Assembly (NCBI GenBank): GCA_001799795.1
Contig: MGUD01000018.1
Location: 2,647-66,646 of the forward strand
DNA from: Elusimicrobia bacterium GWC2_61_19
Lineage (GTDB): Bacteria > Elusimicrobiota > Elusimicrobia > Elusimicrobiales > UBA9959
DNA: 64,000 nt
Direction of reading: 5' to 3'
In this document: positions 19,186 to 53,192 of the stretch, piece by piece
Position numbering within the stretch: position 1 is the stretch's first letter
How the letters are laid out: every line of letters starts with the position of its first letter
The notes under the pieces: generated by a model
Told to the model about the DNA's origin: nothing
The model's input: the letters and a program-made list of their open reading frames with translations, nothing else
Databases searched by the model: none
Translations under genes and position numbers: made by a program

Positions 19186-19470
19186 ATGAAAAATAAAAAA
19201 CTGCTTCTAAACACCTGGCTCAAAGGTGAACTAAAAAATAAGGAATTCAAAAAAGCTTTCGACGCGGAAGACATCCGCGCGCGCCTGGCCCTGCTGATAG
19301 CCGAAAAACGCCACAAACTGGGCGTAAGCCAAGCCGAGCTGGCCCGCCGCATCCACACAAAACAGCAGGTAGTCTCGGACATCGAAACCCTGAAGCACTC
19401 GAACATAACCATCCTGACCCTGGACAAAATAGCCAAAGCCCTGAACAGCCACCTGACGATCTCTTTCTAA
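19186..19470 (+). CDS. XRE-family HTH antitoxin (HigA-like)
   Basis: ATG at 19186, 8 nt after the toxin stop and in frame with listed ORF 19132..19470. HTH segment LGVSQAELARRIHTKQQVVSDIE. Confidence 0.75.
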   Translation: MKNKKLLLNTWLKGELKNKEFKKAFDAEDIRARLALLIAEKRHKLGVSQAELARRIHTKQQVVSDIETLKHSNITILTLDKIAKALNSHLTISF

Positions 19471-19690
19471 GGTAATAGGTGTCTGTCCCTAGTTAAGTTA
19501 TATAAAGGGGCTGATACCCCAAAATGCTAAAAATCAAGACCTGACCCCAGTGCACAATGTGCCGCTGTTAATCTCGCGTATCGTAGTACTCCCGATATGC
19601 CTTTCTTTTTTTAAGATCTAAAAAATCCCGCAGCGGCCGCCCGTTTTCATATTTCCAAAGCGTAATGGAACAAAATCAACGCACGCGAAA

Positions 19691-19836
19691 CCGGAGGGGG
19701 CTGCCGGGGGTATGGCCCTGAGCACCCGTTGCGGAAAGGGGGCCCCAGCCTAATTTTCCCGGCTGGGGGGAAACCGACGCAAGGGTTTCCTCTGCCCGGG
19801 TGAGCAGGGCCATACCCCCGACAGCCCCCCGACCGG
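19691..19836 (+). ncRNA. Unclassified highly structured element (long closing helix plus three-way junction); candidate sRNA or cis-regulatory RNA
   Basis: 19696-19720 pairs with 19805-19829 (25 bp, 1 mismatch). CCGG/CCGG and cacccg/cgggtg extend the helix across a tandem A-G/A-G internal loop. Inner hairpins lie at 19743-19768 and 19769-19790. Strand uncertain. Confidence 0.35.
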
Positions 19837-19875
19837 GCATCCTTGCGGACCTAAAACCAAAGTTATTCTAAGCTT

Positions 19876-19898
19876 CCCCGCTCATTGCGGGGATTTTT
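19876..19898 (+). terminator. Intrinsic terminator downstream of the structured element
   Basis: ccccgc-tcatt-gcgggg followed by attttta. Confidence 0.6.
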
Positions 19899-19934
19899 AT
19901 TGTAAACGCGCTTGAATTTTTAAATAATAGACAT

Positions 19935-21104
19935 ATGACACCGGCCATTAACGAGAAGAGGATGGTGCAGCTGTTCTGCGACCTGGCGCGCATCACGTCG
20001 CTTTCCGGCAAAGAAGGCGCCATAGCGCGGCGCCTCTCCATACTCCTTAAATTCATGGGCGCCGAGGTCTTCATAGACGACGCCGGCCGTAAGATAGGCG
20101 GCGAGACCGGCAACCTCATAGCCCGCTTCCCCGGCACCGCCCCCGGCGAACCCTTTTTACTCTCGGCCCACATGGACACCGTAGGCCCCGCCGACAACGT
20201 CCGACCCGTAGTACACAAAGACCGCGTCACCTCAGACGGCACCACCATACTCGGCGCCGACTGCAAAGCCGGCATAGCCATCATCCTCGAGGTCATCAAG
20301 ACCCTCGACGAGAACAAGATCCCTCACCCGCCCATAGAAGCCGTCTTCACCATCAGCGAGGAAATGGCCCTCATGGGCGCCAAGTACCTGGACTACTCCA
20401 AGCTCCGCTCGCGCTACGGGCTCATCTTCGACAACGAACAGGGCCTCGAGAACGTCATCACCAGCGCCCCCGCCGCCGACGCCATGGAAATAAAAGTCTA
20501 CGGCGCCGCCGCCCACTCCGGTGTAGCCCCCGAAAAAGGCATCTCCGCCATCAAGGTGGTTTCCGACGCCATCTCCGGCATGAAGCTTGGCCGCATAGAC
20601 TCCGAGACCACCGCCAACATCGGCTTCATCTCCGGCGGCAACGCCATCAACATCATACCGCCCCTGGTGGAACTCTCCGGCGAAGCCCGCAGCCACGACC
20701 CAGCCAAACTGAAGAAACAGACCCGCCACATGGAAGACTGCCTCAAGCGGGCCGTCAAAAAGATAAAGATCCGCGCCGACGGGAAAATGATCATCCCCCG
20801 CTACGAATTCCTCATAGAGCAGAAATTCCCGCACCTGCGCATAGACAAGGCCAACCCCGTGCTGGCCCTCATCTCAAGCGCCCTGCGCGACGAAGGCCTT
20901 AAGATGAAACCCTCGGCCTCCGGCGGCGGCACCGACGGGAACATCCTCTACGGCCACGGCATCAAAGCCCCCATCCTGTCCACCGGCATGCGTGACGTCC
21001 ACACCACCCACGAATACCTCGACCTCAAAGATTTCTTCGGCTGCGCCCGCCTCACCCTGAAAGTGATCTCCAGCTGGACGCAGCGCGAATACGCGAAGAA
21101 TTAA
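19935..21104 (+). CDS. M20-family metallopeptidase (peptidase T-like)
   Basis: Motifs LLSAHMDTV and GADCKAGIA, and a PepT-like length. AATAAT lies 6 nt upstream of the ATG and there is no SD. Confidence 0.75.
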   Translation: MTPAINEKRMVQLFCDLARITSLSGKEGAIARRLSILLKFMGAEVFIDDAGRKIGGETGNLIARFPGTAPGEPFLLSAHMDTVGPADNVRPVVHKDRVTSDGTTILGADCKAGIAIILEVIKTLDENKIPHPPIEAVFTISEEMALMGAKYLDYSKLRSRYGLIFDNEQGLENVITSAPAADAMEIKVYGAAAHSGVAPEKGISAIKVVSDAISGMKLGRIDSETTANIGFISGGNAINIIPPLVELSGEARSHDPAKLKKQTRHMEDCLKRAVKKIKIRADGKMIIPRYEFLIEQKFPHLRIDKANPVLALISSALRDEGLKMKPSASGGGTDGNILYGHGIKAPILSTGMRDVHTTHEYLDLKDFFGCARLTLKVISSWTQREYAKN

Positions 21105-24603: not shown

Positions 24604-24733
24604 GGCGTGACAAGGGTGCCGGATAAGCAAAACCGTCGTTGAGCCCGCCGCTTGCATAAGCGCGGCGGGCGAATACCGAGTGAGGGCACGGTGTGCCCGA
24701 ACGCGTTTTGCGTTCCGGCACCCTTGGCGCGCC
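24604..24733 (+). other. Y-shaped GC-rich stem-loop structure in the MFS 3' region / ligase 5' region
   Basis: caagggtgccgga (24611-24623) pairs with tccggcacccttg (24714-24726). gcaaaac/gttttgc extends the helix. Inner hairpins at 24643-24670 and 24684-24698. Confidence 0.35.
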
Positions 24734-53132: not shown

Positions 53133-53192
53133 GGGGACGCTCTTAGTTAATTAGTTTTTGCACTCAAAAACTAATTAACTAAGAGCGTCCCC
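53133..53192. repeat. Perfect 27-bp inverted repeat (AT-rich core) with 6-nt loop
   Basis: ggggacgctcttagttaattagttttt (53133-53159), gcactc loop, then the exact reverse complement (53166-53192). A T7 run lies at 53202-53208. Confidence 0.9.

Follow-up and report, generated by a model that had tools for sequence, protein, structure and literature searches.

The DNA analyzed here, hereafter the window, is a stretch of 64,000 nt from Elusimicrobia bacterium GWC2_61_19 (contig MGUD01000018.1, positions 2,647 to 66,646). Between a HigB/XRE gene pair and the promoter of an M20 peptidase gene it was found to possess a highly structured element of about 146 nt, and this locus raises the question of whether the element is an RNA serving its neighbors or a piece of repetitive DNA. 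A preliminary description, made from the sequence alone, had offered a novel small RNA (sRNA), a cis-regulatory leader and a palindromic mobile remnant as possible readings. The element is very probably one member of a non-coding, non-autonomous family of interspersed repeats (termed type 1) within a genus-level lineage of uncultured Elusimicrobiaceae, of the same kind as repetitive extragenic palindromic (REP) sequences and miniature inverted-repeat transposable elements (MITEs). The third of the three readings is thereby strengthened while the sRNA and the leader lose most of their support, approximately 18 copies being present in a genome that is only partially assembled.

The assembly to which the window belongs (G000) is a metagenome-assembled genome (MAG) of 1.36 Mb in 29 contigs with a completeness of 66%. 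Type-1 copies were sought within it by BLAST, iterated nhmmer and a covariance model, R1, based on 11 full copies (alignment A1). The approximately 18 copies identified are 76–86% identical to the window copy and are spread over 12 contigs. R1 also matched all 24 sampled species genomes of the genus, with between 1 and 68 matches per genome; as these counts cover both strands, the true copy numbers are about half of the match counts. Many dispersed copies had been named beforehand as the sign of a REP or MITE, and with some 18 in this genome and hundreds across the genus they point to repeat DNA of that kind and not to a control RNA for the M20 gene.

Beyond the genus the family is patchy. R1 gave a weak match in one of two genomes of a sister family and none in 14 small genomes of another family of the order. 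When 141 genomes were sampled across the phylum, strong matches occurred only in the genus and weak ones in four other genera (5 of 59 genera altogether). An exact-pattern scan of one genome per species across 185,579 prokaryotic species returned at least 115 stretches. Among the matches listed, all records are titled Elusimicrobia, Elusimicrobiales, Elusimicrobiaceae or an unclassified "bacterium" MAG (SKS isolates), most are groundwater and sediment MAGs, and none is from another named phylum. The viral contigs, plasmids and phages searched gave no match to the repeat, and a full-text literature search returned no paper on such repeats in Elusimicrobia. The family is uncatalogued. Comparison of orthologous sites shows gain and loss of its copies, inversion, invasion by a 45-nt module and replacement by a sister family.

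With regard to the window copy itself (Table 1), the three-way junction, long closing helix and two hairpins of the preliminary description were all recovered where it had placed them. The closing helix consists of an outer block (CCGG at 19691–19694 with CCGG at 19833–19836), a middle block (19696–19720 with 19805–19829, having a single C.A mismatch at 19704/19821) and an inner block (CACCCG at 19723–19728 with CGGGTG at 19797–19802), the last two being separated by an AG/AG internal loop (19721–19722 and 19803–19804). Hairpin 1 pairs CCCCAGCC (19743–19750) with GGCTGGGG (19761–19768) and hairpin 2 pairs GGAAACC (19769–19775) with GGTTTCC (19784–19790). The arms located by inverted-repeat search are 91% complementary. 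RNAfold returned one dominant structure for the plus strand, its closing helix having 34 pairs and enclosing a short junction stem plus the two hairpins, at a minimum free energy of -111.9 kcal/mol compared with -76.1 ± 5.2 kcal/mol for dinucleotide shuffles (n = 200; z = -6.9, no shuffle as good). The minus strand folds almost as well (-110.8 kcal/mol, z = -9.1) because the element is a near-palindrome.

Table 1. Coordinates of the repeat copies, their parts and the adjoining host features within the window.
Feature	Position	Strand	Evidence or remarks
Type-1 Y-shaped hairpin repeat, copy under study	19691–19836	+	Fold; 33-nt inverted arms; R1 score of 148 bits; ~18 paralogous copies in G000
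Closing helix, 5' arm	19696–19728	+	Sequence differs among copies, pairing kept
Closing helix, 3' arm	19797–19829	+	Inverted-repeat search; covariation; G.U excess on the plus strand
Conserved core	19729–19796	+	Junction strand UUGCGGAAAGGGGG; hairpin 1 (19743–19768); hairpin 2 (19769–19790); return strand UCUGCC
3' tail, GACCGGGCATCCTTGCGG-N8-CCAAAG	19831–19862	+	Alignments of copies
Terminator-like hairpin CCCCGC-TCATT-GCGGGG with T-run	19875–19898	+	Consensus scan; outside the repeat
M20 peptidase promoter TTGTAA-17-AATAAT (19900–19928) and ATG at 19935	19900–19937	+	Host sequence downstream of the repeat
Type-2 Y-shaped repeat, sister family with a different core	24604–24733	+	BLAST; GC-rich, just after a major facilitator superfamily (MFS) gene

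No Rfam family accounts for this structure, and the preliminary description had been unable to match it to SRP, 6S, tmRNA, Y RNA, hammerhead or common riboswitch consensus sequences. At Rfam gathering thresholds only a tRNA passes in the whole window, and a scan of 19450–19960 at a permissive E-value gave miRNA-precursor models as the best hits, at 17–29 bits against thresholds of 65–97, which are chance matches. A consensus scan found no promoter-like site within or just upstream of the copy. The repeat was also considered as an intrinsic terminator and rejected, since it has no U-run on either strand and only the separate hairpin at 19875–19898 fits.

The family was characterized from an alignment (A2) of 78 copies from about 19 MAGs. 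Its unit is a hairpin of about 140–150 nt in which a long stem of any pairing sequence carries at its apex a near-invariant three-way junction with two small hairpins. Each of the 24 pairs of the long stem has changed on both sides among the copies, yet pairing is kept in 95.2% of cells. Doubly changed cells number 473, compared with 116 ± 10 after shuffling and 70–84 when the partner is slid by 1–3 columns, and the observed covariation values were reached by none of 500 shuffles. The same picture was obtained from the 11 copies of G000 alone.

Conservation is distributed very differently across the unit. The junction strand UUUGGGGAA(G)GGGGG carries 1.1–2.0 bits per column, most columns being at 2.0, and most of the hairpin 1 stem is also highly conserved, with covariation between GC and AU and between CG and GC. 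The invariance of hairpin 2 is uninformative in this set because it was fixed by the search pattern. The columns of the long stem carry 0.1–1.6 bits; parts of the outer arms (GGGG.GGCC.GGGG) reach 0.9–1.6 bits, yet every stem pair covaries and the center is more conserved than the ends. The AG/AG loop, which had been put forward as a potential RNA-type motif of tandem G-A pairs, is real in the window copy but is kept in only four of the 78 copies, the commonest state at that position being paired CG/CG.

The ends of the element read (C)GGAG-GGGG and CCCC-GAC(T), the 5' flank being unconserved past CGGAG. A 3' tail of the form GAC-TNN-GCATC-YY-GCGG follows in the majority of copies (about 60% by eye), often with CCAAAG 5–9 nt further on, and tail-like sequence stands alone at hairpin-less sites of genomes G018 and G022. 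Overall the tail is weakly conserved (0.2–0.7 bits). It was considered as an insertion target or a shared end; it is common and sometimes solitary, but its conservation is too weak to decide.

The constraint on the fold was found to have a polarity. The plus strand folds at least as well as the minus strand in 10 of the 11 G000 copies, by up to 17 kcal/mol, and on the plus strand the stems of the 78 copies contain 82 G.U or U.G cells against 18 A.C or C.A cells. Between the syntenic aspS–lipA copies of G000 and G018, the three stem substitutions that were compared all proved to be transitions that keep pairing through G.U on the plus strand. The ratio of G.U to A.C is 19:6 in copies co-oriented with the genes around them and 23:7 in anti-oriented copies. 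As the excess is equal in both, the constraint follows the polarity of the element and not read-through host transcripts. The strand required to fold is the element's own plus strand, whatever direction the neighboring genes run.

This observation bears directly on a rather unlikely explanation, namely exaptation at the mRNA level, by which the 30-bp duplex would act in read-through transcripts as a 3' barrier, an RNase III-type processing site or an attenuator and so set how strongly adjacent cistrons are expressed relative to one another, in the manner of REP, ERIC and Correia sequences. Within G000, 14 of the 16 copies between co-directional genes point with those genes, as do 18 of 22 copies at the best-hit loci of relatives. 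Convergent gene contexts outnumber divergent ones, as for most bacterial repeats, and copies inside the hisS–aspS–lipA operon are necessarily transcribed there. However, a wider sample of named MAGs gave 17 copies with the genes and 24 opposed, and two close species carry the element in opposite orientations at the same locus (see below), so that there is no general orientation rule. An argument from co-orientation (14:2 in G000) to a function in read-through mRNA was therefore rejected, and the equal G.U excess in the two orientations indicates that host read-through RNA is not what keeps the fold.

The behavior of the copies within genomes is that of an interspersed repeat. They adjoin the M20 gene, glyA, metK, hisS, aspS, lipA and many unrelated genes, often at a distance of 0–30 nt from the nearest stop or start codon. 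Between hisS and aspS the stop and start codons overlap or nearly abut in at least four genomes (ATGA in G007 and G043, similar in G013 and G002), and the aspS stop and lipA start codons overlap or abut in most of 30 genomes (mostly TAATG or TGATG), from which it follows that the three genes hisS–aspS–lipA form an operon into which the repeat has inserted. Type 1 occupies the hisS–aspS spacer of at least 14 genomes, always pointing with the genes, while in other genomes this spacer holds type 2, remnants (GCGGAGGG-TGCTATCCTGCGG in G018, a 3'-arm fragment in G009) or nothing. The aspS–lipA spacer is filled in only four of the 30 genomes. In G000 (contig C13, 120160–122260, compared among loci L202–L231) both junctions of the operon have been opened by repeat insertions, giving lipA and aspS new 5' spacers.

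Replacement, inversion and nesting were also observed. The sister family, type 2, has in other genomes the same outer arms and tail as type 1 with a different branched core, which in the window copy includes GAGGGCACGGTGTGCCC and GCCCGCCGCTTGCATAAGCGCGGCGGGC. At least 12 copies were found in G000 by BLAST, no Rfam family matches it, and in several relatives it holds the hisS–aspS spacer where others carry type 1. In the spacer between a pgm-like gene and metK, the type-1 element of G000 (C19:53894–54058) is inverted relative to that of G022, the closest sampled relative (L162:6597–6759), within flanks that are about 95% identical; either an in-situ flip between the palindromic ends or re-insertion at the same site could have produced this. 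Two G000 copies (C15:11824–12001 and C3:3571–3745) carry in the loop of hairpin 2 a structured module of 45 nt (GGGCTATGCCC-GTGCCGTATCGAGAGCTATGCTC-N-CAGACGGCC). The module was found elsewhere within a G005 copy (L227) and also free-standing, which suggests a small repeat capable of inserting into others. The unit amplified in STC_50 is a composite of an inverted type-2 and a type-1 element. Bursts of near-identical copies were seen in the tree for STC_50 with GWC2_64_44 and for co266_98 with GWB2_63_22, and near-identical copies occupy non-syntenic loci in different species. An integron attC array was considered and rejected, as the copies lie between housekeeping genes on many contigs.

Scaffold gaps (runs of N) were noted inside G000 repeat copies at C13:120231, C13:40545, C25:69934, C22:73145, C7:8704 and C3:4690, and four copies lie less than 2 kb from contig ends. 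Gaps and contig ends falling in copies show that the repeat families limit the assembly of this MAG.

The conservation pattern would also suit a multicopy family of structured non-coding RNA genes, each transcribed from the plus strand, with a junction that binds a protein or another RNA and with spread as a secondary matter. A highly conserved unpaired junction strand on a stem that keeps only its pairing is the usual signature of a functional RNA, the G.U excess tracks the element's own polarity, and many copies have been kept at the same locus across species whose AspRS proteins are about 80% identical. On the other hand, the 5' flank is unconserved beyond CGGAG, hence no shared promoter is visible, and no common terminator follows the copies, that of the window being private to G000. 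Copies fill spacers to within 0–30 nt of neighboring codons, their matches range from 1 to 68 between congeners, they have been lost, truncated, inverted and invaded, and no Rfam family matches them. Such a gene family is therefore regarded as improbable.

At the M20 locus the question of a leader can be answered from the arrangement of the host sequence. The M20 promoter is sigma-70-like, and ATTGTAAACGCG...AATAAT...ATG is kept in nearly all of 30 genus genomes whether the repeat is present or not. It was also seen that in nearly all of these genomes (loci L054–L083) the ATG lies 6–7 nt past the -10 box, leaving the gene near-leaderless. The repeat lies upstream of this promoter in 7 of the 30 genomes and downstream of the gene in 4, and is absent nearby in about 19; the upstream neighbor gene varies among the genomes compared. 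The terminator-like hairpin and T-run that the preliminary description had placed ahead of the M20 gene were recovered by a consensus scan (19875–19893 plus the T-run); in G018 and G023 nothing equivalent stands at this place of the orthologous locus. This terminator is not part of the repeat and is private to the window's genome.

The position of this highly structured element between both units, with a terminator-like hairpin behind it, is all that favors its being a leader or riboswitch acting in cis on the M20 gene or a 3' element regulating the HigB/XRE pair. Against this, the conserved promoter and near-leaderless ATG lie downstream of the element and persist without it, the element precedes M20 in a minority of genomes, and the same element adjoins glyA, metK, aspS, lipA and many unrelated genes. 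This explanation is extremely improbable and is refuted by copy number and by the absence of gene association. Most likely the window copy does nothing specific for either the HigB/XRE pair or the M20 gene.

Outer inverted ends that start with GTAA (GTAACTACTSAGGT) were seen on two copies from other species, L158 and L073, together with 8-bp direct repeats (GGAAAGAC and GAATAATC, respectively). L073 is the G007 copy that precedes M20; relatives whose site is empty read GGAATATTC in place of its duplicated GAATAATC. GTAAC ends of a similar kind occur on a third copy, L155. Ends starting with GTAA and duplications of 8 bp are typical of the IS66 family. It is accordingly conceivable, if doubtful, that the family is an ordinary MITE with terminal inverted repeats (TIRs) that arose from an insertion sequence of the IS66 type, the Y-shaped hairpin being a passenger and the outer ends having been lost in most copies. 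However, no GTAACTACT ends were found anywhere in G000, the recent burst copies of STC_50 end cleanly with no direct repeats, and the flanks of 65 copies showed no excess of such repeats. The IS66 transposase (PF03050) was undetected in all 24 genus genomes, which is weak evidence because insertion sequences are often missing from MAG assemblies. IS66 was rejected as a general vehicle on the basis of the missing transposase and the lack of GTAA ends in G000.

A partner of the type used by REP sequences was also sought. REP, BIME and REPIN elements are associated with RAYT transposases of the Y1 HUH class (Bertels and Rainey, 2011, PMC3116915; Di Nocera et al., 2013, PMC3733652). G000 was found to possess three RAYT-like Y1 genes with a PF01797 domain and a C-terminal helix-turn-helix (HTH) domain, scoring 67–87 bits against the NCBIfam model REP_Tyr_transpos (cut-off 80; one above, two below). 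No type-1 copy lies in the flanks of any of the three, and two of them (C20:13970–15103 and C19:45271–46398) are bounded by other TIRs, GGGGACGCT.../...AGCGTCCCC. PF01797 was undetected in G003 (36 matches to the repeat, 93% complete) and G022 (24 matches, 91% complete), while G012, G013 and G020 have 2–4 Y1 genes and only one or two repeat matches. RAYT/Y1 was consequently rejected as a simple partner, given the different TIRs, the lack of adjacency to copies and the lack of co-occurrence.

In G000 the TIR family bounding these genes also makes up some two dozen short hairpin MITEs. One lies in the window at 53133–53192 (C18:55779–55838), and about 25 further places in the genome have them; the ends are GGGGACGCTCTTAGTTAATTA and TAATTAACTAAGAGCGTCCCC, with variants ending in ...CTGATGAATTG and ...CTGCTTCCTAAC. 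Together with the two RAYT-like genes these look like a separate system of the REPIN-RAYT type. A motif CCCGACA-N6-TGTCGGG-N3-4-TCTGCTAYRCT precedes each RAYT-like gene (L084, L085, L086) and occurs also at about position 1440 of C18, just left of the window; a hairpin shared for regulation or recognition is one possible reading of it.

Several of these results weigh against reading the family as mobile repeat DNA. No mobilizing enzyme has been identified: IS66 transposase and TnpB (PF07282) were undetected, in the 24 genus genomes and in G000, respectively, and the RAYT-like genes have no repeat copy in their flanks, are bounded in two of three cases by a different TIR family and are undetected in two genomes with many copies. 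An origin from TnpB and omega-RNA was likewise rejected, there being no PF07282 match in G000, and a search of G000 for an autonomous copy revealed no solo arms flanking a gene. Target duplications and conserved flanks are both missing from most copies. Many copies are old and stably inherited. In the tree, those of G000 do not group together but pair with copies from close species. For a selfish element, conservation of the core goes far beyond strict need, which leaves room for a host function. Finally, pairing could be kept up in the absence of selection by gene conversion between the arms, but the G.U excess would not be accounted for in this way.

The family was compared with the closest known systems. 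Like REP and REPIN sequences, type 1 is extragenic, GC-rich and hairpin-forming, is present in dozens of copies, is persistent with mostly vertical inheritance and a hairpin kept by compensatory change, lacks target duplication and lies mostly between unidirectional and convergent genes. As in BIMEs, modules occur in mosaic combinations, and genes of the RAYT class are present in G000. REPs are recognized by a palindrome of 20–40 bp that carries, unpaired at one of its ends, the tag GTAG or CGTC (PMC3733652). In contrast, the column profile of type 1 contains no such tag, and the unit is a single Y-shaped hairpin of 140–150 nt with a three-way core instead of a doublet of 20–40-nt REPs. RAYT-like genes are not flanked by type 1, two of the three having their own GGGGACGC-ended repeats, and RAYT presence does not track type-1 copy number.

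Other bacterial repeats offer a second comparison. The Correia/NEMIS elements of Neisseria and the ERIC/IRU elements of enterobacteria are bacterial MITEs that are co-transcribed into mRNA. Such elements have been the subject of an overview (Delihas, 2011, PMC3184786). Type 1 resembles them in size (100–170 bp), in having a long imperfect palindrome, in its intergenic and intra-operon sites in either orientation and in a copy number that varies among related species; like ERIC, it has a conserved center and no identified mobilizer. It differs in that its termini are less conserved than its center, its stems covary freely, its fold is constrained on one strand only, most copies lack TA or any other regular target duplication, and no cognate insertion sequence was found. 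IS66-derived MITEs are resembled by a minority of copies from other species, those with GTAA-starting outer inverted repeats and 8-bp direct repeats; such ends were not seen in G000 or in most copies, and no IS66 transposase was detected in the genus. By analogy, type 1 would work like REP/REPIN, ERIC or Correia-type repeats. Most copies nevertheless lack what defines REPIN-RAYT systems (tag, flanking RAYT and co-occurrence) and classical MITEs (target duplication and cognate insertion sequence).

An undescribed mobilization system, in which the Y-shaped core would be the recognition module, has been considered and is given a small chance. It could employ a single-strand-specific enzyme, HUH-type or other, that would read a three-way junction borne on the end of a long hairpin of any sequence and carry out insertion without target duplication, or RNA-mediated copying resembling that of short interspersed elements (SINEs); alternatively, the core could be a protein-binding RNA or DNA site retained by the host. 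Such a system would explain the constraint on the plus strand only, the freedom of the stem sequence, the different cores on the same arms (type 1, type 2 or none) and the modules nested in loops.

Returning to the favored reading, a repeat family of the REP/MITE kind would spread, or would once have spread, as DNA through a strand-specific single-stranded hairpin intermediate. The absent target duplication, strand-specific fold and free stem sequence would be in keeping with hairpins handled by HUH/Y1 enzymes, as in REP/REPIN and IS200/IS605. At least one sub-lineage in other species may have been carried by a GTAA-ended transposon that makes 8-bp duplications, and more than one route of movement is likely. 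Any influence on host mRNA, for example through a stable duplex carried by read-through transcripts, would be incidental. The near-invariant junction core, and a strand constraint that ignores host transcription, are the part that the repeat reading leaves unexplained.

For this locus, nothing points to a role in regulating the M20 peptidase gene or the toxin-antitoxin pair. More generally, structure-based screens would mistake copies of the family for riboswitches or sRNAs on account of their extreme z-scores, rich covariation and intergenic position; if left unmasked, the family would lead to false calls of "novel RNA" in Elusimicrobia MAGs, and its copies also break assemblies. The family provides a clean case of a stem that is free to change, a fixed junction core and a strand asymmetry independent of host transcription, in an element that inserts into translationally coupled operons (aspS–lipA). 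Identifying what recognizes the core would show how such repeats persist in the small, gene-dense genomes of uncultured bacteria.

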